Shown: positions 1-63,243, numbered from the stretch's first letter. The stretch: DNA of 64,000 nt from an uncultured Gammaproteobacteria bacterium (GCA_964522515.1 CAZFWC010000001.1:14536-78535); one strand, 5' to 3'. Notes: a model not told the origin generated them from the sequence alone. Program-made: numbers and translations.

Positions 1-29
1 TTTTTTCTTCGTGAGTCATTTTGAGTTTT

Positions 30-203
30 TCCGCCTTCGCCCCTAAAAAATCCTACTGGACTACGGCGGATACCTGTCTGCCGACAGGCAGGAATTCTTA
101 TTTAAAAAACACAGGAGCCTGTCCGCCGGCTTGCCCGCCGTAGCTTTTAGCGAAGGAGGGAGCTAGAGTTTTTTAGGATTGGGGGCGTAGGAGGATTAGG
201 CGA
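30..203. repeat. GC-rich composite palindromic element, full-length copy abutting stop codon of 204..1427
   Basis: CCGCCTTCGCCCC...CTACGGCGG / CCTGTCTGCCGACAGGCAGG / CTTGTGTTT..AAACACAGGAG / CCGCCGTAGC...GCGAAGGAGG...TTAGGCGA. Confidence 0.85.
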
Positions 204-10442: not shown

Positions 10443-12926
10443 TTAAATTAATTTTTCTAATTTTTTAATATATTTTTCAACTCCAATTTCTTTAACTGAT
10501 TCAACGCAATTGGTTGACATATTTGCTAGTTGTTTTTTATTTTGTAAACTAAATTTTAAAATTTTTAATAAATCTTCTGTATCACCAGCTTCAAAAGTAA
10601 AGCCGTTAAAATCATCTTTAATAAATTCAATCCCGCCAATTCGCGCAGCTAAAACTGGCACACCATTTGATAAACTTTCAAAAATAACTGTTGGTGAATT
10701 TTCGTAACATAAAGACGAAACAATTGTTGCGTTGGTCTGAACAAAAATTGTGTTCAACTCAGAATTAGGAATGTAGCCTTTGAAAATAATTTGAGAACAG
10801 TCACTAGCTAATTTTTTAGCTTCATCTAATGCTGTGCCTGTGCCTGCGATTAGAAGGTTAATGTTTTTATTATTATTTTGTTCAGATAATAATTTTTTAA
10901 AAACATTTATTAAAAATAAAACACCTTTGTATTTTTCAACTTGCCCAAGAAAAAGAAAAGTAAATTTATTATCATTTGCAATATTAGCAAATGTTTTAAT
11001 GTTTTGGTGCCTGTCCGCCGTAGCCCTGCCTTGCCGGCAGGCAGGTTTAGCGAAGGAGGATTTTAATGTTTTTATGTTGATTGGATTTGTGAGAATTATT
11101 TTTTTAGATTTTGGAAAAAATCTTCTTTGATTATAAAATTCAAGTAAAAATTTTGATGATGAAATTATAATTTCAGGATTATTAAAAGCCCAGCGATTAT
11201 AAATTTGATAAAGTTTTGTTAAGAAAAAATTGTGTTGCCAAGAGTTTTCTTCGTTTTTTAAAATTAAACCAGATGGTGTTGCAAGTTGAACTTCGTGAAG
11301 TGTGTGGATATTTTTTACTTTGCATTTTTTAATTGCGCGACAAGTTAAATATCCAACACCTTTTAACATATGAGTCATTGAAACTTCTGGTTTTTCTTTT
11401 TTTAAAATATATTTAATTACCCAATAAGAATGCAAGTTAAACATATCAAAAGCGTGCCAAAATAGTCGTAGAAATGGTCTGTGAGCGTATTTATTTATAT
11501 TTAAGTATGAAAACAGGTTTAAAGGATAAAAACGATAAATAATTAAGTTGTTTTCAATAGTTTTTTTAGGCAACAAACTGCGTAAATTTTTAAATTCACA
11601 AATTGTAATTATAAAAATTTTATGATTTGTTTTTTTAAATCCTTTGACAATATTATTAACCACTGTTTCAGCGCCACCTTTTGTGTAAGGCGCAAAAACT
11701 GAAGTGATAAGGCAAATGTGCTTTCCCGCCTTCGCCTTTAACAACTCTACTGGACTATGGCGGGCAAGCCCTTTATTTTTTTGAGTTGGTAGTTTAAATT
11801 TATAATAGTTAATAATTTTTTCACAAATTTTTTTCCAATTATATTCTTTTTCAACTTTTTTTCGTCCTTCTTGCCCAAATTGTTTTGTTTTTTCTGTATC
11901 GTTTATAAAAAATAATAATTTTTTTGCAAGATCTCGGGCGTCATTTGGTTTAACAATTAAACCAGATTTATTTTTATCAGATGTAACTCGTAATCCTGGC
12001 CAATCTGAAACAACAACAGGAGCGCCACAAGCCATTGCTTCTACTGCTGTAATTGAAAAACTTTCAGTTGGCTGCGTTGATGGAACTGGAACAACAGTTG
12101 CTAAATTATAATAAAGTGGCAATTCATTATGATCAATATTGCCCAAAAAAATTACTCCAAAGTGAACACTAAATTTGTTCACTAATTTTTTATAATAATT
12201 TAATAAATTACCTTCTCCTGCAATTAATAATTTTACATCTTGATGATTTATAATTTTTATTGCTTTTATTAAAACATCAATTCCTTTAAAAAAATGGGCT
12301 TTGTCCAAAGCTTGGGCAGTAAAAATTATTTTGTCTGTGTCTTTTAAATTTAATTTATTTTTAATATTTTCAGTATTTAAATTTGGTTTGAATTTTTCAA
12401 TATCAACACCGTTTGGTACAACTTTAAATTTTTCAGAATATTTAAAATAATATTTTTTGATTTTTGAATGACGCGCGTAATCATCTGATAAAACAAAAAC
12501 TTGGTCAACTGTTTTAAATAAAAACGGTGCAATAATTTTTTGGTGTAAATTATTAACAAATTTTGTAATTCCCTTGCCAACCATATCCATTTGATAATGA
12601 AAAATAATTTTTGGACATTTTTTTCTTTTAATTTTTTTTAAAAACCACAAAAATTCTGCAACACCAAAATACGGATAATACAAATGAACTACATCAAAAT
12701 TTTTAACTAATTTCATAATTTGTGGCGCAAAATCTGCATAACCAAAAGAAAATAATGGTTTAAATAATTTTATTTTAAAATTTCCTTGTTTATAATCAAT
12801 TTTTCTGTCAGCTAAAAATACTGTCACATTATGTGACTTTCCAATTTCATTTGCAGTGTAAAAACACGCTGTCCCCATTCCGCTTGAAAGTGGAGGAAAC
12901 ACTGGACTAATGTAAGCGATTTTCAT
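10443..12926 (-). CDS. two-domain (tandem) GT4 glycosyltransferase
   Basis: two GT-B/GT4 modules, each with a C-terminal E-X7-E-like region; carries two in-frame GC-rich element insertions. Confidence 0.7.
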   Translation of the reverse strand: MKIAYISPVFPPLSSGMGTACFYTANEIGKSHNVTVFLADRKIDYKQGNFKIKLFKPLFSFGYADFAPQIMKLVKNFDVVHLYYPYFGVAEFLWFLKKIKRKKCPKIIFHYQMDMVGKGITKFVNNLHQKIIAPFLFKTVDQVFVLSDDYARHSKIKKYYFKYSEKFKVVPNGVDIEKFKPNLNTENIKNKLNLKDTDKIIFTAQALDKAHFFKGIDVLIKAIKIINHQDVKLLIAGEGNLLNYYKKLVNKFSVHFGVIFLGNIDHNELPLYYNLATVVPVPSTQPTESFSITAVEAMACGAPVVVSDWPGLRVTSDKNKSGLIVKPNDARDLAKKLLFFINDTEKTKQFGQEGRKKVEKEYNWKKICEKIINYYKFKLPTQKNKGLARHSPVELLKAKAGKHICLITSVFAPYTKGGAETVVNNIVKGFKKTNHKIFIITICEFKNLRSLLPKKTIENNLIIYRFYPLNLFSYLNINKYAHRPFLRLFWHAFDMFNLHSYWVIKYILKKEKPEVSMTHMLKGVGYLTCRAIKKCKVKNIHTLHEVQLATPSGLILKNEENSWQHNFFLTKLYQIYNRWAFNNPEIIISSSKFLLEFYNQRRFFPKSKKIILTNPINIKTLKSSFAKPACRQGRATADRHQNIKTFANIANDNKFTFLFLGQVEKYKGVLFLINVFKKLLSEQNNNKNINLLIAGTGTALDEAKKLASDCSQIIFKGYIPNSELNTIFVQTNATIVSSLCYENSPTVIFESLSNGVPVLAARIGGIEFIKDDFNGFTFEAGDTEDLLKILKFSLQNKKQLANMSTNCVESVKEIGVEKYIKKLEKLI
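11010..11060. repeat. intragenic in-frame GC-rich element (tandem GT4 gene)
   Basis: CTGTCCGCCGTAGCCCTGCCTTGCCGGCAGGCAGGTTTAGCGAAGGAGG. Confidence 0.8.
11724..11770. repeat. intragenic in-frame GC-rich element, opposite orientation (tandem GT4 gene)
   Basis: CCCGCCTTCGCC...CTACTGGACTATGGCGGGCAAG. Confidence 0.8.
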
Positions 12927-12936
12927 ATTGATTTTT

Positions 12937-13105
12937 TCCGCCTTCGCCCCTAATCCCGAGTACTCGGGACTACTGGACTATGGCGGATAAATTTCTAGTT
13001 CAGTTTTAAATTTTTTTTAATTTAAAAAAATTTAAAACTGCATTAAGAGCCTGCCCGCCGTAGCTAGGATTTTTTAGAGTTGAGGCGAAGGAGGGTTAGG
13101 CGAAT
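12937..13105. repeat. GC-rich composite palindromic element (with CCCGAGTACTCGGG sub-hairpin) filling the GT4 / radical-SAM intergenic gap
   Basis: same modules as 30..203; ends at the stop codon of 13106..14233. Confidence 0.85.
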
Positions 13106-17241: not shown

Positions 17242-19359
17242 TTAATAAGCTAAAATCTCAACTTCCTCATCTTGATCAATATCAAATGCGCTTACTTTAG
17301 CGCCGTTGCGAGAATCTGGATCAAAAGCAAAAAACCCAGGATCAACTAAATGACCAATTTTATCATAAATCCTAATGTGCGGACCGCCAGTTAAACCTGC
17401 TCCTGTAATTATCTCATCTTTTCCATCATTATTCAAATCTAGGCAAGCAACATTTACGCCACCTCTGAATTTTAAATCATAAGAAAAAAATCCAGGATCA
17501 AATAAATGTCCGTCAGATCTGAAAATTCTAATGTGTGGACCGCCACCAAAACCAGCGCCAGTTACAATTTCTTTGTAACCATTTCCATTTAAATCACCTA
17601 AAGCCACATTTACTCCACCACGAAAATTTTTATTATAAGCAAACCAGCCTGTGTGAATTAAGTTTCCTTGATAATTAAAAATTCTAATTTGCGGTCCGCC
17701 ACCTTGTTGCGTTCCAGTTACAATTTCTAATTTTTTATCATCTTGAATATTTCCAATTGCAATATTAATTCCTGAATTATATTTTTCTCCATAAGGATAA
17801 AAAGTTTTAACTAAATTATTTTGAGAATTAAAAATTTTAACTGAATTTGAATTTGCCACAATTGTTTCAAATTTTCCATCTTGGTCTAAATCAGAAATAT
17901 TAATTTGTGCGCCACCTTCAAATTTTGATAAGTAAGCAAAAAAACCAGATCTTTTATTGTTTCCGCGTTTATCAAAAATTCTTAAATAAGAACCATTTAT
18001 AAAAGTTGTATTTATTAAATTAAATTCTTCTTGATTGTTTTCCTGATTAATTAATTCTAATTTTTTTAATAAAATAATTCCGTCTTGTGCTGGTAAAAAA
18101 ATTTGTTTAACCAATTCTCCGTTATTTATTTTTTTATCTTGCACCCCACGAATTTTTTCATAAACTGCATTGTTGTCTAAATTAATTATTTGATTTTGCT
18201 GTGTAGAATTAACTAAAGCAATTCCGTTTTCAAAATCACGACGCCAAATTCCTGATTCGTATTGAACACTAAATTTGTCTTGCCCGCCGTAGCCTTGGCG
18301 AAGGTGGGTCAGTAAATTTTGCGCGGAATTAATTGGTTGACCTAAATTAATATTGTATTCATCATACCACCAAAGTTGAGAGTGATCTTCTGTGCCAAAA
18401 TCAAACGCAAAATATCCATTTTCTAACAAACTTGAAGCTAAACCAAAACGCACTTTTTTAAAATTATTTTTATCACCAGTATTATTTGTATTTGGGTTTA
18501 AAATAATAATATGTGGTAAATAATTAATAGAATTATTTAAATTTTTATAATCATTCATTTGTCCAACCCAACTTCCTTGCCATTTGTCTGGCCAAGATTC
18601 ATAAATTCTACCGTTAATAAAATTTTTTGTGTAACTTGAACTGTTAATTAAAATAATTTTATTATTTCCTAATTCTTTTCTAGTATTTTCTAATAATTTT
18701 TTCATTCCTTCTTGCCACTGGTTGTCAGTTAAATTTGTATTATTAATTTTATCTAAAACATTATCAAAAAAAACTCCATCCCAATTTCCAGTGTTAATTA
18801 ATTCTTGTTTAACAAATTTGGGTAGCCAAGAATTAAATTCAGAATTCGTAACATTAAATGAATAATTTCCTGGCCAAATTGAGTGAATATTATTTTGTTT
18901 ATCTTTTAACCACCAAGATGAATTAATTTGCGCATACATTTTATGCCACGGACCATTTGAGCTTTCTAAAATTTTATAATTTTGAATTGGAAATTCCATT
19001 GAAGAAAGATAAGCAATAATTTTAATATTAGGATTAAGATTTTTTAATTCAGAAAAAATATTTAGGTTTGTGTCTTGAACTTGCATTCCTAAAATAACCA
19101 CATCCCATTTTGCTAATTTATTTATTTCAGAATTTGAAATTGGAGTTTTTAAATAATAATTTGCAAGTTTTGGGTAGCTGTTATAACTAGCTTGCGCTGG
19201 TTGTAAAAATAAAAAAAACGCTAAAAAAATTAACGCCAATAAAACAAAAAAAGCAACATTTTTAAAGTTATTTTTTAAATTTATAAATTTGCTCCAATTC
19301 TTTATAATATTGTTCAGAATTGTACAATTTAGCCACTTTTTGTTGAATTTCATATTCAT
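17242..19359 (-). CDS. secreted protein: N-terminal glycoside-hydrolase-like domain plus C-terminal FG-GAP/beta-propeller repeats
   Basis: signal/TM anchor; repeated DxDxDG...VTGAGxGGGPHIRIF units (FG-GAP-like); contains an in-frame GC-rich element. Confidence 0.55.
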   Translation of the reverse strand: MNMKFNKKWLNCTILNNIIKNWSKFINLKNNFKNVAFFVLLALIFLAFFLFLQPAQASYNSYPKLANYYLKTPISNSEINKLAKWDVVILGMQVQDTNLNIFSELKNLNPNIKIIAYLSSMEFPIQNYKILESSNGPWHKMYAQINSSWWLKDKQNNIHSIWPGNYSFNVTNSEFNSWLPKFVKQELINTGNWDGVFFDNVLDKINNTNLTDNQWQEGMKKLLENTRKELGNNKIILINSSSYTKNFINGRIYESWPDKWQGSWVGQMNDYKNLNNSINYLPHIIILNPNTNNTGDKNNFKKVRFGLASSLLENGYFAFDFGTEDHSQLWWYDEYNINLGQPINSAQNLLTHLRQGYGGQDKFSVQYESGIWRRDFENGIALVNSTQQNQIINLDNNAVYEKIRGVQDKKINNGELVKQIFLPAQDGIILLKKLELINQENNQEEFNLINTTFINGSYLRIFDKRGNNKRSGFFAYLSKFEGGAQINISDLDQDGKFETIVANSNSVKIFNSQNNLVKTFYPYGEKYNSGINIAIGNIQDDKKLEIVTGTQQGGGPQIRIFNYQGNLIHTGWFAYNKNFRGGVNVALGDLNGNGYKEIVTGAGFGGGPHIRIFRSDGHLFDPGFFSYDLKFRGGVNVACLDLNNDGKDEIITGAGLTGGPHIRIYDKIGHLVDPGFFAFDPDSRNGAKVSAFDIDQDEEVEILAY
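18279..18310. repeat. intragenic in-frame GC-rich element core (FG-GAP protein gene)
   Basis: CTTGCCCGCCGTAGCCTTGGCGAAGGTGGG. Confidence 0.8.
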
Positions 19360-26953: not shown

Positions 26954-27008
26954 AGCCTGTCCGCCGTAGTCCAGTAGTGTTTGTTAAGGGCGAAGGCGGG
27001 TTAGGCGA
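26954..27008. repeat. GC-rich element, short copy abutting stop of 27009..28472
   Basis: CTGTCCGCCGTAGTCCAGTAG...GGCGAAGGCGGGTTAGGCGA. Confidence 0.8.
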
Positions 27009-29360: not shown

Positions 29361-30167
29361 TTACTTTGTCAAAATTTCACTTCCTTTTTCAGTTACTAAA
29401 ATTGTGTGTTCAAAATGCGCAGCTAAGGAATTGTCTTCGGTTTTAAACGCGTTAGTTTTTTTATCAACAACAACATCTGGATTCCCAGCTGTAACCATTG
29501 GCTCAATTGCTAAAGTCATTCCTGATTTTAAAATCGGACCAGTTCCTTTTTTCCCAAAATTTGGAATTTGTGGAGGCTCGTGCAATTTTTTTCCAACCCC
29601 GTGCCCAACTAATTCATAAACCACGCTAAATTTATTTTTTTCAACAAATCTTTGAATTTCATAAGAAATATTACCTAAATAAATTCCTGGTTTTATTTTT
29701 TTAATTGCTAAATCCAAAGATTTTTTAGTTACACTCAGAAGTTTTTTTGTTGAATGAGAAATTTTTCCAATTGAAACTGTTTTTGCCATATCTGTAATCA
29801 TTCCATTCCCTCCTTCGCCAAGCCTGCCTGACGGCAAGGCAGGGCTACAGCGGGCAGGTTTTGCAGGATATCTTAATCCAATATCAATACTTAAAATATC
29901 TCCATCTTGTAAAATGCGATTTGGAATTGCTGGCGCGTGCACAACTTCATTATTAATACAAGTACAAATCGCTGTTGGAAATCCTTGATAACCTTTAAAT
30001 ATTGGCCAACCATTTATTTTTTTTATTTCTTTTTCCGCTAATTCATTTAGTTCTTTTGTGCCAACACCAATATCAGCTTTTTTAATAAGCAAATTTAAAA
30101 TTCGCGCTAAATGTTTTCCGCATTCTCGCATTATTTCAATTTCTTTTGGGGTTTTTATGATAATCAT
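29361..30167 (-). CDS. map: methionine aminopeptidase type I
   Basis: MetAP pita-bread fold motifs (HGVGKKLHEPPQIPNFG, metal ligands); carries about 57-bp in-frame GC-rich element insertion. Confidence 0.85.
   Translation of the reverse strand: MIIIKTPKEIEIMRECGKHLARILNLLIKKADIGVGTKELNELAEKEIKKINGWPIFKGYQGFPTAICTCINNEVVHAPAIPNRILQDGDILSIDIGLRYPAKPARCSPALPSGRLGEGGNGMITDMAKTVSIGKISHSTKKLLSVTKKSLDLAIKKIKPGIYLGNISYEIQRFVEKNKFSVVYELVGHGVGKKLHEPPQIPNFGKKGTGPILKSGMTLAIEPMVTAGNPDVVVDKKTNAFKTEDNSLAAHFEHTILVTEKGSEILTK
29808..29866. repeat. intragenic in-frame GC-rich element (map)
   Basis: CCTCCTTCGCCAAGCCTGCCTGACGGCAAGGCAGGGCTACAGCGGGCAGG. Confidence 0.8.
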
Positions 30168-30648: not shown

Positions 30649-30719
30649 AAATAAATTTTACAACATCAAATACTCAAAGTCCTCAATTTTTTAGGGGACT
30701 TTTTTATTTTCAAAAAATA

Positions 30720-30840: not shown

Positions 30841-30851
30841 TACTTAATTTT

Positions 30852-33402: not shown

Positions 33403-33471
33403 AAAATTTTGTAATCTGTAATCCGTAATTTGTAACTTGTAAATTTATTTTAAATAATTACAAATTACAAG
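33403..33471. repeat. inverted arrays of TGTAAYN heptamers in the rpsE-rplO spacer (where L30 would lie)
   Basis: TGTAATC TGTAATC CGTAATT TGTAACT TGTAAAT ... AATTACA AATTACA AGTTAC. Confidence 0.7.
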
Positions 33472-33951: not shown

Positions 33952-33960
33952 AATTTATTT

Positions 33961-34096
33961 CTCCGCCTTCGCTTCTAAAAAATCCTACTGGACTACGGCG
34001 GATAAACTCTTGTGTTTAAAATTTAAAAAACATAGGAGCCTGTCCGCCGTAGCTAGAGTTTTTTTAGGATTGAAGGCGGAGGAGGATTAGGCGCAA
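33961..34096. repeat. GC-rich composite element between rplR and rpsE
   Basis: shared modules; right end at rplR stop, left end 9 nt from rpsE start. Confidence 0.85.
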
Positions 34097-34528
34097 TTAA
34101 AATTTAAAACCTGCTTTACGAGCACCTTCTGCTACTGCTTTAACTCGTCCGTGATATTTATATTTTGATTTATCAAAAACACAAGTTTTTATTTTTTTTG
34201 CAATTGCTTTTTTTGCTAAAAGTTTTCCAACTTCAAAAGATATTAATATTTTATTAGTTAGTTTATTATTATTTTTTTTATTTTCAACTCCTTCCTTTCC
34301 CTGCCCGTCAGGCAGACGGGTTAATTTCTCAATTTCTTTTTTATTTATTTCTTTATCACTTGCGCTAACTAATGTTTTGCCTTTTTCATCATCAATTAAT
34401 TGCGCTGAAATATTTTTTAAACTTCTAAATACGCTTAATCTTGGTTTTGTTGCTGTACCAAAAATTTGAGCTCTTACACGGGCTTTTCTTCTTTGCTGTT
34501 TTTTATTTTTTATTTTTTGTGGATTCAT
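34097..34528 (-). CDS. rplR: 50S ribosomal protein L18 (with in-frame palindrome insertion)
   Basis: L18 conserved N- and C-terminal blocks; operon position. Confidence 0.85.
   Translation of the reverse strand: MNPQKIKNKKQQRRKARVRAQIFGTATKPRLSVFRSLKNISAQLIDDEKGKTLVSASDKEINKKEIEKLTRLPDGQGKEGVENKKNNNKLTNKILISFEVGKLLAKKAIAKKIKTCVFDKSKYKYHGRVKAVAEGARKAGFKF
34299..34322. repeat. intragenic GC palindrome module (rplR)
   Basis: CCTGCCCGTCAGGCAGACGGG. Confidence 0.6.
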
Positions 34529-34531
34529 ATT

Positions 34532-35086
34532 TTAAGTTGTAGCTCCTTTCGCTTGCTTCCCTGCTTTTCTGCGAATTACTTCATCAACATATTTAATTCC
34601 TTTTCCTTTGTAAGGTTCTGGTTTTTTAATTTTTCTAATTTGCGCTGAAGTCTCCCCAACTAAATATTTATCAAAACCTTTAACAATAATTATATTTTTT
34701 TCAACAGAAATGTCAATATTTTCTGGAATTTTAAAATTAACTTGATGCGAAAAACCCACATTTAAAATTAATTCTTGTCCTTTAACCACAGCTTTGTAAC
34801 CAACTCCGTTAATTTCTAATTTTTTTTCAAATCCTTCTGTCACACCAATAATCATATTATTAATTAATTGTCTAAAAGTTCCCCAAACAGATTTTTCTTT
34901 TTTTACTTCTTTATTTTTTACATCAACTGTTAATTCTTTTTTATCATCTGAAAAAATTAGTTTAATTTCTGGAATTAATTTTTGTTTTAATTCTCCTTTT
35001 GGTCCTTTGACAACCACAAAATCAGCATCAATTTTTACATCAATTTTTTCTGGAATTAAAATTGGTTTTTTCCCGATTCTAGACAT
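34532..35086 (-). CDS. rplF: 50S ribosomal protein L6
   Basis: two L6 alpha/beta repeats; SRIGKKPI N-terminus. Confidence 0.9.
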   Translation of the reverse strand: MSRIGKKPILIPEKIDVKIDADFVVVKGPKGELKQKLIPEIKLIFSDDKKELTVDVKNKEVKKEKSVWGTFRQLINNMIIGVTEGFEKKLEINGVGYKAVVKGQELILNVGFSHQVNFKIPENIDISVEKNIIIVKGFDKYLVGETSAQIRKIKKPEPYKGKGIKYVDEVIRRKAGKQAKGATT

Positions 35087-35096
35087 AAATTTATAA

Positions 35097-35282
35097 TTTA
35101 TCCGCCTTCGCCCCTAAAAAATCCTATTGGACTACGGCGGATACCTGTCTGCCGACAGGCAGGAACTCTTGTGTTTAAAATTTAAAAAACACAGGAGCTT
35201 GCCTCCTCCTTCGCTAAAGCTACGGCGGGACAGGCGCCGTAGCAATTAAAGAGTTGCTAGGGAGCGAAGGAGGGGAAGCGAT
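35097..35282. repeat. GC-rich composite element between rpsH and rplF
   Basis: full module set incl. CCTGTCTGCCGACAGGCAGG palindrome. Confidence 0.85.
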
Positions 35283-35720
35283 TTAATAAATTTCACAAAC
35301 TACTTCCCCACCTAAATTTTCTTTCTTAGCTTTCACATTTGTCATTAATCCTTTTGATGTTGAAATAATTGCAATACCGTAATTATTTAAAACTACTGGC
35401 AAATTATCTTTTGAAACATAAATTCTGCGACCTGGTTTTGAAATTCTTTTTATTTTGCTAATTTTAGGATTATTTCCATTGTAAAATAATTTAATTTTTA
35501 ATTGATTAAATTTAGCATTTTTTTCTTGCGCGCTTTTTGCAACAATTTTTTTAGAAATTTGTGGTTCTATTTTTTCAACGTCTTTAATCCATTTTTCTGT
35601 TTCTAAAATTTTAGCAATATTAAATTTTAATTTTGAATACGGCAAAATCACCTCAAGTTTTTTAACTGCTTGAGCGTTTCTAATTCTTGTTAACATATCT
35701 GCGATTGGATCTGTGTACAT
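35283..35720 (-). CDS. rpsH: 30S ribosomal protein S8
   Basis: DPIADMLTRIRNA N-terminus, GGE..CEIY C-terminus. Confidence 0.9.
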   Translation of the reverse strand: MYTDPIADMLTRIRNAQAVKKLEVILPYSKLKFNIAKILETEKWIKDVEKIEPQISKKIVAKSAQEKNAKFNQLKIKLFYNGNNPKISKIKRISKPGRRIYVSKDNLPVVLNNYGIAIISTSKGLMTNVKAKKENLGGEVVCEIY

Positions 35721-35734
35721 AATTTTGTAATTTC

Positions 35735-35900
35735 TCCGCCTTCGCCCTTAAAAAATCCTTTAACACTACGGCGGATAAATTTTTAGTGTTTTTTTATAAA
35801 AAAGAATTAAGAGCCTGCCCGCGCCGGCTTGTCCGCCGTAGCCTTTGGCAAGGAGGAAGCTAGAGTTTTTTTAGAGTTGAAGCGAAGGAGGGTTAGGCGA
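35735..35900. repeat. GC-rich composite element between rpsN and rpsH
   Basis: shared modules. Confidence 0.85.
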
Positions 35901-36086
35901 CTACCAACTTGATTTTTTAATTCCTGGAATTTCGCCTTTGTTTGCTAATTCTCTAAAGCAAATTCTACACAAACCAAAATCTCGCATAAAACCTCTGTTT
36001 CTACCACAACGCCAACAACGATTCACTTTTTGCGTTGTGAATTTTGGTTTTCTTTTTGATTTTGCGATTTGCGCTTTAGTTGCCAT
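35901..36086 (-). CDS. rpsN: 30S ribosomal protein S14 type Z (zinc-binding)
   Basis: 61 aa, CWRCGR...CRIC zinc ribbon. Confidence 0.9.
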
Positions 36087-36096
36087 AAAAGTTTTT

Positions 36097-36221
36097 CTCC
36101 GCCTTCGTTCCCTAAAAATCCTACTGGACTACGGCGGATAAACTCTTGTGTTAAAAAAACACAGAAGCTTGCCCGCCGTAGCTGGGACTTTTAGGATTGA
36201 AGCGAAGGAGGGGAAGCTAAA
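36097..36221. repeat. GC-rich composite element between rplE and rpsN
   Basis: shared modules. Confidence 0.85.
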
Positions 36222-36764
36222 TTATTTCTGAAATGGAAACCCAAATAATTTTAATAATTCAAAACCTTGTTCTTTGTTTTTTGCTGTTGTTGTAATTGCT
36301 ACTTCTAAGCCGTGAATTGTTTCAACTTTTGACATTTCAATTTCTGCAAAAGCAGTGTGGTCTTTAAATCCTATATTTAAATTACCTTGTTTGTCAATAT
36401 TTTTTTGATTAATCCCTCTAAAATCTCTAACCCTTGGCAAAGTAACATTAATTAATTTATCAAAAAAATCATACATTCTATTTCCGCGCAATGTGACTTT
36501 TGCTCCAACAATATTTCCTTGTCTTGTTTTAAAAGCTGAAATTGCTTTTTTAGCTTTTGTAAAAATTGGTTTTTGTCCAGTAATTTTAGTTAAAGTTTTT
36601 TCAATTAATTCTAAATATTTATTTTCTCTTTTTGATGTTGAAATTCCTACATTTAAAGTTATTTTTTCTAATTTTGGAACAGCTAAATTATTTTTAAAAC
36701 CAAACTTTTCCTTAAGCGCAGGAATAATCTCGACAGTAAATTTATTTTTTAGACGATTTGACAT
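36222..36764 (-). CDS. rplE: 50S ribosomal protein L5
   Basis: L5 conserved blocks; operon position. Confidence 0.9.
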   Translation of the reverse strand: MSNRLKNKFTVEIIPALKEKFGFKNNLAVPKLEKITLNVGISTSKRENKYLELIEKTLTKITGQKPIFTKAKKAISAFKTRQGNIVGAKVTLRGNRMYDFFDKLINVTLPRVRDFRGINQKNIDKQGNLNIGFKDHTAFAEIEMSKVETIHGLEVAITTTAKNKEQGFELLKLFGFPFQK

Positions 36765-36831
36765 ACAATATTATTGTTTATTATTTTTTATAATTTTACC
36801 CGAATTTTTATGAATTGTTTTATTCGGGTGG

Positions 36832-37188
36832 CTAGAAACTAGCTTTACATTTTTTACAAATTCTATTCTTTTTTTCACGAGAAATATCTGATTTTCCTTC
36901 TTGCAATTTAAATCCTACTCTAGTTGGTTTTCCGCATTTTGGACAAATTAATTGCACATTTGAAATATTCATTGGAGCTGGAAACATAATTCTTTGTCCT
37001 TTTTCACCTGATTTTTTTGGTCGCAAATGTTTGTATCTTAAATTTAAACCTTCAACAACAACTTTAAGATCTTTTCCTGAGTGAGTTTTAACTGATTTGG
37101 AAGGATGCAACACAGTTAAAACTTTCCCAGTTTTACCTTGGTCTTTACCTGTTAATATTTTTATTGTGTCATTTTTTTTAATTTTCAT
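36832..37188 (-). CDS. rplX: 50S ribosomal protein L24 with C-terminal Cys4 zinc-ribbon extension
   Basis: KOW motif KIKKNDTIKILTGKDQGKTGKVL; C-terminal CPKCG...CKKCK. Confidence 0.85.
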   Translation of the reverse strand: MKIKKNDTIKILTGKDQGKTGKVLTVLHPSKSVKTHSGKDLKVVVEGLNLRYKHLRPKKSGEKGQRIMFPAPMNISNVQLICPKCGKPTRVGFKLQEGKSDISREKKNRICKKCKASF

Positions 37189-37192
37189 ATTT

Positions 37193-37564
37193 TTAAAGTA
37201 CCTCTGGCGCTAACGAAATAATTTTATTAAATCCTTTTGCGCGGAGTTCTCTTGCAACTGGACCAAAAATTCTTGTTGCTTTTGGTTCTTTTGTTTTTGG
37301 GTCAACAACTACGCCTGCGTTTTCATCAAAACGAATATAAATTCCAGATTTTCTGCGAGTTTCTTTTTTTGTTCTAACAAGCACTGCTTTAACAACATCA
37401 CCTTTTTTAATTTGTCCGTGTGGAACAACTTCTTTAACAGCGCAAGTTACAATGTCTCCAATTCTAGCAAATCTTTTTTTGTAACCGCCAGTAACTCTAA
37501 TAACCTGGAGTTTTTTAGCTCCGGAATTATCTGCTAGTTTCATTGTTGACATTAGTTGTAACAT
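37193..37564 (-). CDS. rplN: 50S ribosomal protein L14
   Basis: highly conserved L14 sequence (DNSGAK...[10 protein letters not shown]). Confidence 0.95.
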
Positions 37565-37569
37565 AAAAA

Positions 37570-37815
37570 TTAATTTTTAATTTTCCACCTTTTGCCTTTT
37601 GACAACGGTTTACATTCAACAAAATTTACTTTATCATTAATTTTACATTTATTATTTTTATCGTGAACTTTATAATTTTTTGAAACAGTATATCTTTTTT
37701 TATATTTTGGATGAATTTTTGTGCGGTCAACTTTAACAACAATGGTTTTATCCATTTTATCCGAAATAACGATTCCTGTGAAGGCGCGTTTTATTGTTTT
37801 TTTATTTTCTTTCAT
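37570..37815 (-). CDS. rpsQ: 30S ribosomal protein S17
   Basis: OB-fold S17 blocks ([14 protein letters not shown]...). Confidence 0.85.
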
Positions 37816-37833
37816 AAAATTTTATAAATAAAA

Positions 37834-38037
37834 TTATTTAGTTTTTTCTTTTAAAATAGTTTGTATTTGCGCGATTAATTTTTTAGTTGTGCCAACATCA
37901 CTAACTTTTTTTAATTGTCTTTGCGCAACTTTAAATCTCATCTCGCGTAATTTTTCTTGAGACTCAGTTAGTAATGTTTTTAATTCATTTTCTGATTTTA
38001 ATTTTAGTTCTTTAATTTTCATAAAATTATTTTCCAA
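37834..38037 (-). CDS. rpmC: 50S ribosomal protein L29
   Basis: 67-aa helical protein at canonical position between rplP and rpsQ. Confidence 0.75.
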   Translation of the reverse strand: MENNFMKIKELKLKSENELKTLLTESQEKLREMRFKVAQRQLKKVSDVGTTKKLIAQIQTILKEKTK

Positions 38038-38437
38038 CCACCTTACATTTTACAGGTAACTTGTGAGCAGCTGATGTTAAAGCTTCACGAGCTTTGTGTT
38101 CTGGAATTCCATCAATTTCAAACATTATTGCTCCTGGTTTTACAACTGTGACAAAATGATCTGGAGCGCCTTTTCCTTTTCCCATTTTCATTTCATTTCC
38201 GTGAAAAGTCACAGGTTTGTCTGGAAAAAGTCTAATCCAAATTTTTCCGCCTTTTCTTGTGTGCCTAACAATCACGCGTCGAGTTGCTTCAATTTGTCTT
38301 GAAGTTACCCAAGAAGCTGTTAATGCTTTTAAACCAAAACTGCCAAAATCAACTTTTGTTAAACGCGACGCCTGACTGCCAGAAGTACCAGCTTGTAAGT
38401 GCCATTTTCTGTGTTTTGTTTTTTTTGGTGCTAACAT
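38027..38437 (-). CDS. rplP: 50S ribosomal protein L16
   Basis: L16 conserved blocks (RGGKIWIRLFPDKP..., FEI.G). Confidence 0.9.
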   Translation of the reverse strand: MLAPKKTKHRKWHLQAGTSGSQASRLTKVDFGSFGLKALTASWVTSRQIEATRRVIVRHTRKGGKIWIRLFPDKPVTFHGNEMKMGKGKGAPDHFVTVVKPGAIMFEIDGIPEHKAREALTSAAHKLPVKCKVVGK

Positions 38438-38452
38438 AATTTTTTATAGTTT

Positions 38453-38598
38453 ATCCGCCTTCGCCCCTAATCCCGAGTACTCGGGACTACTGGACTACGG
38501 CGGATACCTGTCTGCCGACAGGCAGGAACTCTTGTGTTAAAAAAGCACAGGAGCTTGCCCGCCGTAGCTAGGACTTTTAGGGTTGAAGCGAAGGAGGG
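38453..38598. repeat. GC-rich composite element between rpsC and rplP
   Basis: shared modules incl. CCCGAGTACTCGGG sub-hairpin. Confidence 0.85.
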
Positions 38599-39240
38599 TT
38601 AAACAAATTTTTCACCTTTATAAATCCAAATCTTAACTCCAATTGCTCCGTAAGTTGTGCGAGCTGTTGCTGTTCCATAATCAATATCAGCGCGCAAAGT
38701 GTGCAAAGGAATTTTTCCTTGAGTTAATTTTTCAGTGCGAGCAATTTCTACTCCGCCTAATCTTCCAGCGCAATGAACTTTCACACCTTGCGCACCAGCT
38801 TTTATAATTGCTTCAATATTTCTTTTCATTGAACGACGGTACGGAATTCTTTTTTCTAATTCAAGAGCAATATTTTGCGCCATTATTTGCGCGCAAAGTT
38901 GTGGCTTGTTAACTTCTTTTATATTAATTTGTAGTTTGATTTTTTTATTTTTTATAATTTTTTTTAATAAATAATTTTTAATTTCTTCAACTCCAACTCC
39001 GCCTCGCCCAATAATAATTCCTGGTTTTGATGAATGCAAAATTATATTAATGTTGTCGGGTGATCTTTCAATTTCAACACTTTTTAAACTGCAGTCCCTA
39101 AGTTTACTATTTAAATATTCTCTCAATTTTGTATCTTGTTCAAGTTGTCGCGCAAAAGCAGGTCCACGCTTAAACCAGCGAGAAGCCCAATTTTCGCTTA
39201 AACCAATTCTGAAAATTTTAGGATTTACTTTGTGACCCAT
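38599..39240 (-). CDS. rpsC: 30S ribosomal protein S3
   Basis: KH domain and S3 C-terminal domain (GRLGGVEIARTE). Confidence 0.9.
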   Translation of the reverse strand: MGHKVNPKIFRIGLSENWASRWFKRGPAFARQLEQDTKLREYLNSKLRDCSLKSVEIERSPDNINIILHSSKPGIIIGRGGVGVEEIKNYLLKKIIKNKKIKLQINIKEVNKPQLCAQIMAQNIALELEKRIPYRRSMKRNIEAIIKAGAQGVKVHCAGRLGGVEIARTEKLTQGKIPLHTLRADIDYGTATARTTYGAIGVKIWIYKGEKFV

Positions 39241-39252
39241 AAAAATAAAATT

Positions 39253-39903
39253 TTATATTGATTTTCTTCTAAACATTTTTTTCAAAGCGCCACCTTTGCT
39301 TTTTTTACGAACAGTGTCTAAATGTTGCTTTCCTCTATCAGATCCTTCTCGTCTAACATCTTTAATTTCTTTTTTATATTCTTCTTCTTTTAATTTTTTA
39401 ATTTTAGGTTCTAATTTGGTCTCTTGTTTCTCTAATTCTTTAACTTCATCTAAAGATTTTACTATTTTTATATTTTTATCAATTTTTTTCTTGTCTTTTT
39501 TATCTTTTTTAATATCAGATTTATCAGCTTTTACCTGCCTGTCTGGCAGGTGGACCTGTGATTTATTAGTGTCTTTCTCTTCCAAAATTATTGAAATGTG
39601 ACTTGTCCTTTTGTTAATTGCTGAAGCTCTTCCAAATGCTCTTGGTTGCCACCTTTTTAAAACAGGACCTTCATCAACTTTTAATTCTGAAATATATAAA
39701 TTATTTTCTGCTAATTTAAAATTATTTTTTGCATTTGCAATCGCGCTGTTTAATAATTTCAACATTGAATCAGCTACTTTTTTGTTTATAAATTTTAACT
39801 GATTTTGCGCGACTTCAACATCTAGCCCCCGAATTAAATCGGCCACTAATCTAACTTTGCGAGGTGATATTCTTAAATGTCGTAATTTTGCAGAAACTTT
39901 CAT
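39253..39903 (-). CDS. rplV: 50S ribosomal protein L22 with about 100-aa Lys/Glu-rich C-terminal extension
   Basis: L22 core in N-terminal about 115 aa; extension carries in-frame CCTGCCTGTCTGGCAGG palindrome. Confidence 0.85.
   Translation of the reverse strand: MKVSAKLRHLRISPRKVRLVADLIRGLDVEVAQNQLKFINKKVADSMLKLLNSAIANAKNNFKLAENNLYISELKVDEGPVLKRWQPRAFGRASAINKRTSHISIILEEKDTNKSQVHLPDRQVKADKSDIKKDKKDKKKIDKNIKIVKSLDEVKELEKQETKLEPKIKKLKEEEYKKEIKDVRREGSDRGKQHLDTVRKKSKGGALKKMFRRKSI
39534..39560. repeat. intragenic GC palindrome module (rplV extension)
   Basis: CCTGCCTGTCTGGCAGGTGG. Confidence 0.6.
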
Positions 39904-39926
39904 AATTTTTTCCCGGGTACTCGGGA

Positions 39927-40223
39927 TTACTTTTTTTCTTTTGATTTTTTTTCAACTTCTTTTTGTTTTTTACCGCCGTGTTTAACAAATTTGCGAGTGG
40001 GAGAAAATTCACCAAGTTTGTGACCAACCATATCTTCAACAACAAAAACTGGAATGTGAATTTTACCATTGTGAACTCCAAATGTAAAACCAACCATTTC
40101 AGGCGTGATTGTTGAATTTCTTGCCCAAGTTTTAATCACAATTTTGTCACCAATCTTAAGCTTGCCGACTTTTTTCATCAGTTTTGCGTCAATGTATGGC
40201 CCTTTTTTTAAACTTCTTGACAT
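39927..40223 (-). CDS. rpsS: 30S ribosomal protein S19
   Basis: [11 protein letters not shown]... and GHKLGEF blocks. Confidence 0.9.
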
Positions 40224-40316
40224 AAAATATTTAGCAACTTGTAATTCGTAACTAGTAACTTGTAAATTGATTTTTTATTTTTTAAAATAAAACAATTACG
40301 AGTTACAAATTACAGA
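40224..40316. repeat. inverted arrays of GTAAYNN heptamers in the rplB-rpsS spacer
   Basis: TTGTAAT TCGTAAC TAGTAAC TTGTAAA ... AATTACG AGTTACA AATTACA GATTAC. Confidence 0.7.
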
Positions 40317-41156
40317 TTACTTGCGTTTCTTTCGTCTTTTAATAATTAATTTATCTGTCCATTTTTTCTTTCTTGTTTTTACTCCAAGAGATGGTTTTCC
40401 CCATTTTGTTTTAGGGTGTTTCATTCCAATTGGGTGTTTTCCTTCTCCGCCACCGTGAGGATGATCAACTGGGTTCATTGCTTTACCACGAACAGTTGGT
40501 TTAATTCCCATATGTCTTTTCCTTCCAGCTTTACCAATTCTAACTAATTTTGCTTCAGGATTTGAAACTTGTCCAATGGTCGCAAAGCATTCTTTTTTAA
40601 ATAATTTAATTTCTCCCGAAGGAATTTTTAACTGAGCATATTTTCCTTCAACATTTTGTAAAACAATTCCTGTCCCAGCGCTTCTTGCGACTTTACCACC
40701 TCTGTTTGGCTCTACTTCAACATTGTACACCATACTTCCTTGTGGAATCAACTCTAAAGGCATTCTGTTTCCATTTTTAGCTTCTATTTTTTTGTCTGAA
40801 CTCATCACAGTGTCATTAACTTTCATATCAACAGCAGCTAAAATATATGATTTTGTATTATCTTTGTATTTTATCAGCGCAATTCTAGCGTTACGATTTG
40901 GATCGTATTCAATTGCTTCAACAGTAGCTTGAACATCAAATTTTGTTCTTTTAAAATCAATTATTCTATAAATTTTTTTAGATCCGCCACCACGGTGCCT
41001 AACAGTAATTCTGCCTTGATTATTTCTTCCCGAATATTTTTTTAAACTTTTACACAATTGTTTTTCTCTTTTTTTATTTTTTGTTAAATCAGAAGAATCA
41101 ACAACAGATGTTCTGCGTCGCGCTGGTGTTGTTGGTTTGTATAATTTAATAGGCAT
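40317..41156 (-). CDS. rplB: 50S ribosomal protein L2
   Basis: highly conserved L2 blocks incl. GGGEGK, HPHGGGEG. Confidence 0.95.
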   Translation of the reverse strand: MPIKLYKPTTPARRRTSVVDSSDLTKNKKREKQLCKSLKKYSGRNNQGRITVRHRGGGSKKIYRIIDFKRTKFDVQATVEAIEYDPNRNARIALIKYKDNTKSYILAAVDMKVNDTVMSSDKKIEAKNGNRMPLELIPQGSMVYNVEVEPNRGGKVARSAGTGIVLQNVEGKYAQLKIPSGEIKLFKKECFATIGQVSNPEAKLVRIGKAGRKRHMGIKPTVRGKAMNPVDHPHGGGEGKHPIGMKHPKTKWGKPSLGVKTRKKKWTDKLIIKRRKKRK

Positions 41157-41162
41157 AAAAGT

Positions 41163-41356
41163 TTTTCCGCCTTCGCCCCTAATCCCGAGTACTCGGGACT
41201 ACTGGACTACGGCGGATACCTGTCTAGCTGACAGGCAGGAACTCTTGTGTTTAAAATTTAAAAAACACAGGAGCTTGCCTCCTCCTTCGCTAAAGCTACG
41301 GCGGACAGGCGCCGTGGCAATTAAAGGGTCGCTAGGGAGCGAAGGAGGGGAAGCGA
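41163..41356. repeat. GC-rich composite element between rplW and rplB
   Basis: near-identical to 35097..35282 plus sub-hairpin. Confidence 0.85.
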
Positions 41357-41803
41357 CTAAACTCCTTCGTAAACATCTAATTTATCATTTTTTTGTAAAA
41401 TAATTATTGCTTTTTTCCAATTTTTTAATTTACCAAATTTTCTTCCGTATCTTACCATTTTACCGCGCATATTTACAGTATTAATTTTAACTGGTTTTAC
41501 ACCATAAAGTGTTTCAATTGCTTTTTTAATTTCTGATTTATTTGATTTTATCGCAACTTCAAAAACATATTGATTAAACTCTCCTAAGGAAGATGCTTGT
41601 TCAGTAATTATTGGTCTGATTAAATTTTTGTAAGCGTTGCCGTGATATTTTGTTGCCAGACTTTTATTTTTTGGTAATTTAGTTTTTTTTAATATTTTTT
41701 TTTCTTCAACTTCAACTTCATCAAATTTTTTAATCTGTTTTTTAGCTGTGTCTGATTTTTTCTTTTTAAATTTATCAAAAATACTCATATTGTCATTTAT
41801 CAA
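41357..41803 (-). CDS. rplW: 50S ribosomal protein L23 (N-terminally extended)
   Basis: L23 core IIRPIITEQA...; operon position. Confidence 0.85.
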   Translation of the reverse strand: MINDNMSIFDKFKKKKSDTAKKQIKKFDEVEVEEKKILKKTKLPKNKSLATKYHGNAYKNLIRPIITEQASSLGEFNQYVFEVAIKSNKSEIKKAIETLYGVKPVKINTVNMRGKMVRYGRKFGKLKNWKKAIIILQKNDKLDVYEGV

Positions 41804-42618: not shown

Positions 42619-42710
42619 CCTGATCCCGAGTGCTCGGGAGAAGGATCTGTTTTTTTAATTATTTATTTTATTAATTTTTGGCTAATTTTAGCTAATAATA
42701 CGAATGGGCT

Positions 42711-46400: not shown

Positions 46401-46458
46401 GAGCCTGTCCGCCGTAGCTAGAGTTTTTTAGGATTGGGGGCGTAGGCGGATTAGGCGA
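46401..46458. repeat. GC-rich element short copy abutting stop of acidic protein gene
   Basis: GAGCCTGTCCGCCGTAGC...TTTTTTAGGATTGGGGGCGTAGGCGGATTAGGCGA. Confidence 0.8.
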
Positions 46459-50503: not shown

Positions 50504-52636
50504 TTATTTATTTTTTCCTTCCACAATTTCCTCTGCCACATTTTTCGGAACTTCTGCGTAGTGATGAAATTCCATTGTTGAAGTTCCACGGCCTTGAGTA
50601 ATTGAACGCAAAGTTGTAACATATCCAAACATTTGAGCCAAAGGCACTTCCCCATCAATAACTTTTAAATTCCCGCGCTCTTTCATTTCATTAATTTTCG
50701 CGCGTCTAGAACTTAAATCACCAATCACATCACCCATATATTCTTCAGGCACAAGAACTTCAATTTTCATAATTGGTTCAAGCAAAATTGAACCCGCATT
50801 TTTAGCAGCTGCTTGAAAAGCAATTGAGCCCGCCATTTTAAACGCAATTTCAGAAGAATCAACTTCGTGAAAAGATCCATCAAACACACTTGCTTTAATA
50901 TCTACCATTTGATAACCAGCAACAATTCCTCGGCTCATTGCTTCTTTAACGCCTTTTTGAATTGCTGGAATATATTCTTTTGGAATCACTCCGCCTTTAA
51001 TTGCGTCAACAAATTCAAAATTTTCTGTTTTAAGAGATTGATCTTTAGAATCTTTTTCTTTTGGTTCAATTCTAAGCCAGCAGTGTCCATATTGTCCGCG
51101 TCCACCAGATTGTTTAATATATTTTCCTTCTGCTTCAGCTATTTTTTTAATTGTTTCTTTGTAAGCAACTTGCGGTTTGCCAACATTACATTCAACTTTA
51201 AATTCTCGTTTCATTCTTTCAACTAAAACATCTAAATGCAATTCTCCCATTCCCGAAATAATTGTTTCTAAAGTTTCTTCATCGGTTTTAATTTGAAAAG
51301 TTGGATCTTCTTGCGCTAATTTATTTAAAGCCAATCCCATTTTTTCTTGATCAGTTTTTGTTTTTGGTTCAACAACAACTGAAATTACTGGCACTGGAAA
51401 AATAATTTTTTCTAACACAACAGGACTATTTTCACTACAAATTGTGTCGCCAGTTGTTGTTTGTTTTAATCCAACAGCCGCGGCAATTTCACCAGAAAAA
51501 ACTTCATCAACATCTTCTCGCGAGTTTGCGTGCATTCTTAAAATTCGTCCTAATCTTTCTTTTTTCCCAGTAGTTGTGTTTAAAATATAAGTTCCAGCTT
51601 TAATTGTTCCGGAGTAAACTCTAAAAAAAGCCAAACTGCCAACAAAAGGATCAGTTGCAATTTTAAAAGCTAAAGCAGAAAACGGTTCTTTGTCATCAGC
51701 TTTTCTAATTTCTTTTTGAGATTCCCTGTCCGCCGTAGCTTTAGCGAAGGAGGAATTTTTTGGATTAAAACCTTGAACAGACGGGACATCTAAAGGCGAA
51801 GGCAAAAAATCATTAACAGCGTCCAAAACAAACTGCACACCAATATTTTTTAAAGCAGAACCTGCTAAAACTAAATAAATATTATTTGATAAAGTTCCTT
51901 TTCTTAAACCTTTTTTAATTTCGTCAATATTTAATTCTTTTCCATTTAAAAATTTTTCTAACAAATCATCATCTTGTTCAGCGGCTTTTTCAATTAATTC
52001 TGCGCGATATTTTTCAGCCTGCTCTTTTAAATCAGCTGGGATTTCAATTTCATTAATTTCTTCGCCGTGCTCTCCTTTAAATTCAAAAGCTTTCATTTCT
52101 AAAATATGAATTACGCCTTTTAAATTTTCTTCAGCTCCAATTGGAATTGTATAAGCAATTGCGTTTGGATTTAATCTTTGTTTAATTGATTCAATACTCA
52201 TTTTAAAATCCCCGCCCATTTTATCCATTTTATTAATAAAAGCGATTCTTGGAACTTTGTATTTATCAGCTTGACGCCAAACAGTTTCTGATTGTGGCTC
52301 AACACCTTGGGCTCCGTCAAAAACCGCAACTGCTCCGTCAAGCACACGCAAACTTCTTTCAACTTCTGCTGTAAAATCAACATGACCCGGAGTGTCAATA
52401 ATGTTGTAGCAAAAATCTTTCCAAAAACAAGTTGTCGCTGCTGAAGTAATTGTAATTCCTCTTTCTTTTTCTTGTTCCATCCAATCCATTTCAGATTCAC
52501 CTGTGTGAGTCTCGCCAATTTTGTGTTTTTTTCCAGTGTAAAATAAAACACGCTCTGTAAAAGTTGTTTTACCAGCATCAATGTGGGCTATTATTCCAAT
52601 ATTTCTAGTTTTTTCTAAAGTATATTTTCTTGGCAT
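50504..52636 (-). CDS. fusA: elongation factor G (with in-frame GC-rich element insertion)
   Basis: [18 protein letters not shown]-motifs, full five-domain length. Confidence 0.95.
51724..51755. repeat. intragenic in-frame GC-rich element core (fusA)
   Basis: CTGTCCGCCGTAGCTTTAGCGAAGGAGG encodes ...AKATADRES... in an EF-G loop that is longer than in E. coli EF-G. Confidence 0.8.
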
Positions 52637-53538: not shown

Positions 53539-53546
53539 TTTTATTT

Positions 53547-53632
53547 CTCCGCCTTCGCCCCTAAAAAATCCTACTGGACTACGGCGCCTGTCCGCCGTAG
53601 CCTTGGCAAAGGAGGAGATAAACTCTTGTGTT
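53547..53632. repeat. GC-rich element upstream of rpsL start
   Basis: CTCCGCCTTCGCCCC...CTACGGCGCCTGTCCGCCGTAGCC...GGAGG. Confidence 0.8.
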
Positions 53633-56897: not shown

Positions 56898-56945
56898 CCT
56901 GCCTGCCCGCCGTAGCTTTAGCGAAGGAGGGTCCTGAGGAGGAAC
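56898..56945. repeat. GC-rich element core upstream of ychF
   Basis: CCTGCCTGCCCGCCGTAGCTTTAGCGAAGGAGGG. Confidence 0.75.
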
Positions 56946-63190: not shown

Positions 63191-63243
63191 AGCCCGCCAG
63201 CCGAAGCAATAAAGGGTTGTTAAAGGCGAAGGCGGGTGAGCGA
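63191..63243. repeat. GC-rich element short copy abutting ftsB stop
   Basis: GCCCGCCAGCCGAAGC...GGCGAAGGCGGGTGAGCGA. Confidence 0.7.

Follow-up and report, generated by a model that had tools for sequence, protein, structure and literature searches.

The window analysed here, a 64,000-nt stretch of DNA from an uncultured bacterium (CAZFWC010000001.1:14536-78535), was found to carry a dense family of GC-rich palindromic elements, six full-length copies of which fill spacers between consecutive ribosomal-protein genes. These elements encode nothing and are probably selfish DNA, namely palindromic repeats of the non-autonomous REP/REPIN (BIME) type. They were shown to have landed in frame inside open reading frames (ORFs) and at or just after stop codons, without target-site duplication. 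The elements work like the REP/REPIN family, with a behaviour like that of the Rickettsia palindromic elements (RPEs) in addition; the kind is known and, within the literature searched, is new for the Candidate Phyla Radiation (CPR).

The G+C content of the window is about 29%, and the minus strand carries almost all of its genes. Those flanking the six elements encode L23, L2, S3, L16, L5, S14, S8, L6, L18 and S5 as identified by Pfam, all of them on the minus strand, and the operon around the elements is S10/spc, with tuf and fusA upstream and secY, adk and map downstream. Because the best named relatives of its SecY belonged to Candidatus Kuenenbacteria and other Patescibacteria, the host is assigned by protein similarity to the CPR (Patescibacteria), which bore out the guess of a CPR-like host made in a preliminary description of the window.

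Copies and architecture of the elements

Six GC-rich spacers of 135-200 nt were identified (41157-41356, 38438-38598, 36087-36221, 35721-35900, 35087-35282 and 33952-34096). The preliminary description had located six full-length copies between named ribosomal-protein genes, and all were present there, with flanks confirmed by Pfam. The L23/L2 spacer (200 nt) held a full composite element of three units (41162..41356, minus strand), with CCCGAGTACTCGGG and CCTGTC..GACAGG sub-palindromes. In the S3/L16 spacer (161 nt) a full element (38450..38601, minus strand) began with a 5' box whose TAA is the stop codon TAA of S3, and a 5-nt deletion variant of this copy, within the CCCGAGTACTCGGG sub-hairpin, was present in two strains. 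The simplest full element, composed of two inverted units and a central hairpin (36094..36221, minus strand; dG -60.8, z -8.0), occupied the L5/S14 spacer (135 nt), and in one contig this copy had an exchanged core. Another full element (35732..35900, minus strand) was situated in the S14/S8 spacer (180 nt). The S8/L6 spacer carried the second three-unit composite (35097..35282, minus strand), which showed 95.6% identity over 159 nt with the L23/L2 copy, and the L18/S5 spacer carried a full element (33958..34096, minus strand) with a folding z of -8.3 on the minus strand and -10.0 on the plus strand.

Two more full elements were revealed outside the operon, one between the M23 peptidase gene and the next gene (26..203, minus strand) and the other between a radical-SAM gene and a glycosyltransferase gene (12933..13105, minus strand). 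Single units stood directly 3' of the stop codons of gene 27009-28472 (26954..27008, minus strand; E 1e-13) and gene 46459-47094 (46402..46458, minus strand; upstream of tuf), and a degenerate unit directly 3' of the stop codon of a DivIC-like gene (63212..63243, minus strand). A minimal unit was located just upstream of the ychF start codon (56902..56931, minus strand), and a unit joined to an inverted minimal unit (53544..53620, plus strand) ended 10 nt before the start codon of rpsL (S12). The additional copies reported earlier were thus real, as two full elements (1-203 and 12927-13105) and five single or partial units. In addition, a solo CCCGGGTACTCGGG mini-palindrome (39912..39925) made up most of the S19/L22 spacer, and a second solo copy was found upstream of L4 (42625-42638).

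The copies could be aligned to one another far beyond chance. Their pairwise identity was 83-96%, and the core words CTACGGCGG and CCKCCTTCGC occurred 23 and 26 times in the window, against 0.02 and 0.03 expected. A profile hidden Markov model (HMM) built from 17 units gave 29 matches in the 64-kb window, 18 of them with E<1e-8, and the density of units was about one per 3 kb of sequence seen.

The building block of the family is a unit of 24-50 nt, which consists of CC(G/T)CCTTCGC, a loop of 5 to about 50 nt and CTACGGCGG, usually followed by (A/G)CA(A/G)G. Read on the complementary strand as CCGCC-GTAG-(stem-loop)-CGAA-GGCGG, it comprises a 5-bp GC clamp, a conserved 3x3 GUA/GAA internal loop that includes the GTAG, and a variable inner hairpin. 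The GTAG (CTAC on the other strand) was invariant in 23 copies, where it follows the outer CCGCC/GGCGG clamp and precedes the inner stem and thus is no free terminal tag. In a full element, a variable core is enclosed by one unit read on the gene-sense strand and another that is inverted. This core is the hairpin CTCCTGTGTTT..AAACACAAGAG, to which a CCTGYC..GRCAGG palindrome may be added; the S8/L6 and L23/L2 elements contained a third, minimal unit. Every reusable module named in the preliminary description was present and non-random. Since the small palindromes nested in the elements, CCCGAGTACTCGGG and CCTGYC..GRCAGG, also occurred alone (39912-39925, 42625-42638, and in the L18 and L22 genes), the composites are nested mosaics. 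Sense-strand units had CCTCC and antisense units CCGCC, which is an asymmetry between the strands.

The eight full elements, made of two or three units in inverted orientation, gave folding z values of -6 to -10, and the antisense strand folded as well as or better than the sense strand. The element had been described earlier as one long hairpin. This is right for the copies of 135-161 nt, which folded into a single long hairpin (z -7 to -10 on either strand); the copies of 196-200 nt, the three-unit composites, folded as a row of several adjacent hairpins.

Insertion sites and comparison with related genomes

The position of the elements relative to genes was highly regular, and their polarity relative to the flanking genes was identical in all eight full elements. 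An extra box, TCGCCTAA or TCGCTTCC, marked the stop-side end. In all 11 intergenic cases this end started 0-3 nt behind a stop codon, three of these cases being single units whose spacers measure 160-260 nt. At the start side, the distance to the following ATG was 10-17 nt in all nine cases. The window has six TAG stop codons, and three of them adjoined an element. Two of the genes concerned, those of L23 and S14, end in TAA in the relative L057 and in TAG here, with the element directly 3', so the insertion at these two sites looks to have taken place within or just after the stop codon.

The preliminary description had overlooked units and sub-palindromes lying in frame in protein-coding genes, as well as other repeat families in further spacers of the same operon. 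A 30-nt minimal unit in fusA (51726..51755, minus strand) codes for 10 residues, which form an exact gap in the alignment to S. aureus EF-G. The GC-rich palindrome CCCGTCTGCCTGACGGG in the L18 gene (34284..34328, minus strand) lay in a 28-aa insertion, and a CCTGCC..GGCAGG palindrome in the L22 gene (39527..39563, minus strand) in a 13-aa insertion, both of which were absent from three relatives. A degenerate unit antisense to the L4 gene (42062..42117, plus strand) fell in a 28-aa insertion compared with L057, a segment that is variable in L063. The methionine aminopeptidase gene carried a unit with an inner CCTGCC..GGCAGG palindrome (29809..29853, plus strand), and its protein has 268 aa versus 250-252 aa in relatives. 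The glycosyltransferase gene 10443-12926 contained an in-frame unit with an inner palindrome (11009..11061, minus strand) and a second unit (11722-11769, plus strand). Minimal units were also in frame in a DUF4012 gene (7723..7750, minus strand), where PPSPKLRRAG is encoded, and in a GHL15-family gene (18280..18311, minus strand), where HLRQGYGGQ is encoded. Among these genes the unit was read in all three frames, and on flanking contigs of the same genome units were found inside the genes of DnaK and the CCA-adding enzyme.

A split tRNA gene was observed at 62944-63136, where an insert, about 105-118 nt long, interrupts tRNA-Thr(CGT) behind the D-arm. Within it lies another tRNA-Thr(CGT), complete in itself (62985-63059), between GC-rich inverted arms CCTGCCCGCC / GGCAGGCGGGG that are related to the repeat family. 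The outer tRNA-Thr was called by ARAGORN only after removal of the insert.

The nearest relative found was L057, with a SecY 93% identical. Its spacers at the six sites, in the order in which the copies were described above, measured 6, 15, 6, 17, 4 and 12 nt, thus 4-17 nt at all six, with conserved gene ends and without the unit motif, which occurred 0 times in about 30 kb of L057 versus 8.3 times per 10 kb here. When the six filled sites were compared with the empty sites of L057, no target-site duplication was visible. Compact S10/spc operons were also present in three further relatives (L063, L201 and L202). An expansion into normally tiny spacers, like that of miniature inverted-repeat transposable elements (MITEs), REP, Correia or RPE elements, had been proposed earlier, and it holds, given four related genomes with compact operons and the nature of the elements as non-coding hairpins. 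Comparison of these operons shows that the family expanded in this lineage after the split from the nearest sampled relative, and the copies are recent to judge from their identity to one another and the variants between strains.

In two other relatives, L061 and L203, most S10/spc spacers were filled by hairpin elements of about 80-250 nt, mainly of other, unrelated families. The GC-rich family had one or two members in each of them, at different sites, namely S19/L22 in L061, and L5/S14 and L6/L18 in L203. Because the spacers of L061 and L203 hold other families and differ in the sites occupied, colonisation of spacers by palindromic repeats is, on the genomes compared, repeated and independent in this clade.

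Several other repeats were observed in these operons. The other spacer families of L061 (1-10000) and L203 (600-10000) included TTCGGAAATAATTCGGA, GCGAATATTTGCGAATA, GTAATCCGTAAC and TTTATCTCGAGCGA..TCGCTCGGGATAAAC, and L061 carried inserts of 588 nt and 538 nt around L16. In the window a second, AT-rich palindromic family (GTAATTTGTAACTCGTAATTG...) was present at 40224-40316 (L2/S19) and 33403-33471 (S5/L15), where the spacers in the relative are 5 nt and overlapping, respectively. The spacers of L24/L5 (67 nt), L4/L23 (50 nt) and L3/L4 (513 nt) were expanded as well. Two more dispersed repeat families were located at 16183-16253 and 30164-30234, and at 17068-17170, 30705-30842 and 3722-3759; one of the two (GTCATCCCGAG...GGGATCCC) resembles hairpins in the spacers of L061 and L203.

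Possible mode of spread and alternative explanations

Spread of the REP/REPIN type was considered likeliest because the features of the family match published REP biology (PMC3733652). Published GTAG-REPs are found beside ORF 3' ends and also within genes, pair as inverted dimers and provide TAG stop codons (PMC3733652, Di Nocera et al. 2013, where RPEs are also mentioned), and REPINs have been described by Bertels and Rainey 2011 (PMC3116915). The elements share with them a short, imperfectly palindromic GC-rich unit in which GTAG is invariant, and the occurrence as single units, as inverted dimers folding to a larger hairpin and as clustered or nested groups. They also share the lack of target-site duplication, the location directly downstream of ORFs with a TAG stop sometimes supplied, the occasional in-frame copies, and the presence of many copies in one lineage with none in close relatives. 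They differ in that GTAG is internal to the hairpin, with the outer CCGCC/GGCGG clamp on one side and the inner stem on the other, in that the loops can be long with nested palindromes, and in the dense colonisation of the S10/spc operon. The host also differs, being a Patescibacteria genome of about 29% GC from a phylum not covered by REP surveys, with no RAYT gene in the about 84 kb of genome searched. Among the families named in the preliminary description, REP/REPIN/BIME fits best, with RPE-like in-frame insertions, while a MITE of the DDE type or a Correia element fits worse.

Under this reading the elements would spread as single-stranded DNA hairpins, which would be cut and joined in trans by an HUH/Y1 (RAYT-like) transposase whose gene would lie elsewhere in the genome. 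The operon copies would be co-transcribed with the ribosomal-protein genes in polycistronic mRNA, since essential genes lie downstream and the outer hairpins form no U-tract terminator. Such insertions may be tolerated because the hairpin ends 10-17 nt before the next ATG, which would leave the AU-rich initiation region free, and because the genome makes little use of Shine-Dalgarno (SD) sequences.

Several points weigh against the REP/REPIN assignment. The window (Pfam on window ORFs), about 20 kb of same-genome flanks and the surroundings of units in other Patescibacteria yielded no transposase of any kind, in a search that covered about 84 kb of this genome, less than 10% of roughly 1 Mb. 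The ORFs beside units in other Patescibacteria were housekeeping genes only, as judged by Pfam. RAYT was sought by phmmer and jackhmmer, with an E. coli RAYT sequence and the ORF of L104 as queries against the six-frame ORFs of all loci, and the sole RAYT-like ORF in 1.9 Mb of fetched loci was that of L104, which is flanked by a different REP and belongs to an unrelated REPtron. The position of GTAG between two stems is unlike the unpaired terminal tag of described REPs, and with this atypical position membership in the RAYT-mobilised REPs is unproven. Mobility would follow from presence and absence between lineages that are not the same species, and the 12 contigs of the population that carry the exact S8 protein showed no allele with an empty site. 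The transcription and RNA folding of the elements are likewise predicted properties.

The regular position of the ends invites a different explanation, in which selection maintains the elements as cis-acting structures of the polycistronic mRNA, as processing or stability hairpins or as devices for termination-initiation coupling. The 5' arm CCCUCCUUCGC, beside the stop codon, is anti-SD-like, and the 3' arm GCGAAGGCGGAG, 10-17 nt before the ATG, is SD-like; in such a device a ribosome that terminates would open the stem and so free the 3' arm. The spacing of both ends, kept even in long spacers (11 of 11 at 0-3 nt after the stop, 9 of 9 at 10-17 nt before the ATG), the shared orientation of all eight full elements relative to genes, and a U.G wobble on the sense strand where the other strand has a G.A mismatch speak for it. 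However, the elements are absent from the nearest relatives and therefore not required, the same units are found inside ORFs and in unrelated contexts, no Rfam family matched, and the orientation bias could equally reflect the direction of replication, since nearly all genes are on one strand. An SD sequence was present in only about 5 of 63 window genes, so masking and unmasking of SD sequences is unlikely to matter and was downgraded as a reason for tolerance. Selection on the sense-strand RNA was unsupported too, given that the antisense strand folds as well or better. On balance this explanation was judged unlikely.

We gave a lower probability still to classical MITEs, that is, internally deleted insertion sequences (IS) of the DDE-transposase class mobilised via terminal inverted repeats, like Correia/NEMIS. 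The outer arms do act as terminal inverted repeats of about 25 nt on a non-coding element of 135-200 nt, but the filled/empty comparison gave no target-site duplication, single and minimal units of 24-30 nt occur alone and in tandem as REPs do, and no related IS or transposase was found. An artefact of assembly or binning, with repeat collapse or chimeric contigs, was suggested by contigs that break or mis-join at elements, and it is extremely improbable for the following reason. Ten of the 12 contigs with the exact S8 protein, from ten different samples and produced by several assembly pipelines, contained the region with the same elements at the same sites and at 99.9-100% identity to the window, so the artefact could be ruled out for the six operon copies. 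The repeats do disturb assembly. L077 ends inside an element, and in L076 (4211-4411) and L078 (2169-2368) S8 is joined via an element to S4/rpoA instead of L6, through either a repeat-induced mis-join or a real rearrangement; from these joins another element copy would be expected upstream of rpsD.

Other known identities were tried and rejected. An integron attC site was dismissed because only one of its two boxes is present, the stop-side GCCTAAC box, and the other end (..GGCGAAGGCGGA) is without GTTRRRY. An intrinsic terminator was rejected because the outer hairpins have no U tract and run into A-rich sequence; a terminator scan flagged only weak internal stems of 5 bp, and no promoter-like match lay inside the elements on the sense strand among the matches listed. 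A known RNA family or ribosomal-protein leader was rejected after a search of Rfam at gathering and permissive thresholds, in which only three tRNAs passed the gathering threshold and the elements contained only weak matches to miRNA precursors (E>0.5). The words GGCGAAGGCGG and GGACTAC, which we take to resemble the 720 and 806 regions of 16S rRNA, were wrong in order and spacing, so the resemblance was put down to coincidence. TIGR arrays did not fit, as the elements are dispersed and not arrayed, with no Tas gene.

Some other repeats offer instructive comparisons. RPEs occur in the small AT-rich genome of a host-dependent bacterium, lie in frame in essential genes and add short peptides to the proteins; RPE-1, reported by Ogata et al. 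in 2000, is said to measure about 100-150 bp and to be mostly intragenic. The in-frame palindromic insertions found here (EF-G 10 aa, L18 +28, L22 +13, L4 +28) are alike in behaviour, presumably without sequence relationship, and differ in that the pieces within genes are mostly units of 24-50 nt, the large composites lying between genes. Features of Correia elements are terminal inverted repeats of 26 bp, a TA target duplication and an IHF site. Like Correia/NEMIS of Neisseria and ERIC/IRU, the elements are hairpin repeats of the 100-160-bp kind lying between operon genes and presumably co-transcribed with their neighbours; unlike Correia, they show no duplication or such features and have a modular single-unit structure. 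The GC clusters of yeast mitochondria are short GC-rich palindromic mobile modules in an AT-rich genome, nested and occasionally in frame in genes, whose mechanism is also unknown; they belong to an organelle genome with unrelated sequences and serve as an analogy only.

Occurrence in other genomes and neighbouring features

When the GTDB species representatives were scanned with a 17-nt pattern, mostly chance matches in GC-rich genomes were obtained, together with eight contigs belonging to three Patescibacteria metagenome-assembled genomes (MAGs), one of them Falkowbacteria, in which the flanking, unsearched parts of the unit were conserved too. The units in the Patescibacteria MAGs lay 1-21 nt after ORF ends. 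By this sequence evidence the unit is one that this genome shares with other Patescibacteria MAGs. Scans of metagenomes and IMG/VR gave many matches in coding sequence and several dozen non-coding units, on contigs of 45-70% G+C, which had the same clamp, internal loop and trailing RCARG and were often in tandem or inverted; one 24-mer of this 29% GC genome recurred, with just one base changed, on contigs of 59-68% GC. A phage database gave no match.

A composition-matched reversed control pattern yielded 104 raw matches versus 57 for the real pattern, so raw match counts outside the CPR are no evidence. Real and control matches were separated only by short gaps (27 of 48 versus 16 of 79), by the trailing RCARG motif (10 of 48 versus 1 of 79) and by the multi-copy arrangement, and a shuffle test of inner-stem pairing was weakly positive (0.82 versus 0.56 +/- 0.11). 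A wider distribution in GC-rich non-CPR and viral contigs is therefore given as probable, not proven. A far-reaching version would make the unit a member of a widespread, undescribed class of modules that combine the CCGCC/GGCGG clamp with an invariant GUA/GAA loop and an inner hairpin that covaries, a class shared by CPR, GC-rich phyla and (pro)viral contigs and inserting in ORFs, RNase P RNA and tRNA genes. The conserved factor recognising it would be either a single transposase lineage that crosses phyla by moving between CPR episymbionts and the hosts they live on or a part of the translation machinery, the latter being considered because the element ends abut stop and start codons so precisely. 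We regard this version as a doubtful proposal.

Two observations on structured RNA genes were made in these contigs. In L177 (287-730), a metagenome contig of 58% GC, the bacterial RNase P RNA is 444 nt long versus a 367-nt model and carries two GC units (546-573 and 654-700), so the unit can also lie within a structured RNA gene. In L100 (about 4000-4090), L225 and L234, which are non-CPR, the unit starts exactly at the apparent tRNA 3' acceptor end (...GGTTCAAATCCCACCCTCTCCGCC|TTCGCC...), which hints at targeting or mimicry of tRNA ends.

The literature searched contained no paper linking REP, REPIN, RAYT or MITE elements with Patescibacteria and none matching the sequence strings, and the supplements of Di Nocera et al. 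held no such sequence. The earlier statement that no such family is described for the CPR thus stands within the literature searched.

Some other features of the window were also noted. An N6/N4 DNA methylase with a fused Mrr-like restriction endonuclease domain (47979-49490, plus strand) is encoded between fusA and tuf on the opposite strand; GC skew is reversed locally over the same interval, and the gene looks like an inserted island in the str region. An extra ORF of 137 aa (44473-44886, minus strand) between tuf and rpsJ had no Pfam match and was called in independent assemblies too. Plus-strand ORFs of 67-95 aa running through the GC-rich elements (33803-34090, 35938-36141 and 41137-41403) are spurious, with a risk of being mis-called as genes.

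The elements matter for annotation and assembly, since they create spurious ORFs and break and mis-join contigs. Genomes of CPR/Patescibacteria are seen as extremely streamlined, and here such a genome carries a young, dense repeat family in the most conserved bacterial operon, with peptide segments added to L18, L22, L4 and EF-G. CPR ribosomes are known as unusual, and the insertions in ribosomal proteins add to this. Hairpins of 135-200 nt between the cistrons of a genome that barely uses SD sequences raise the question of how so tight an operon is expressed, and whether systems of the REP/RAYT type exist in the CPR, or are borrowed from hosts, is now directly testable.

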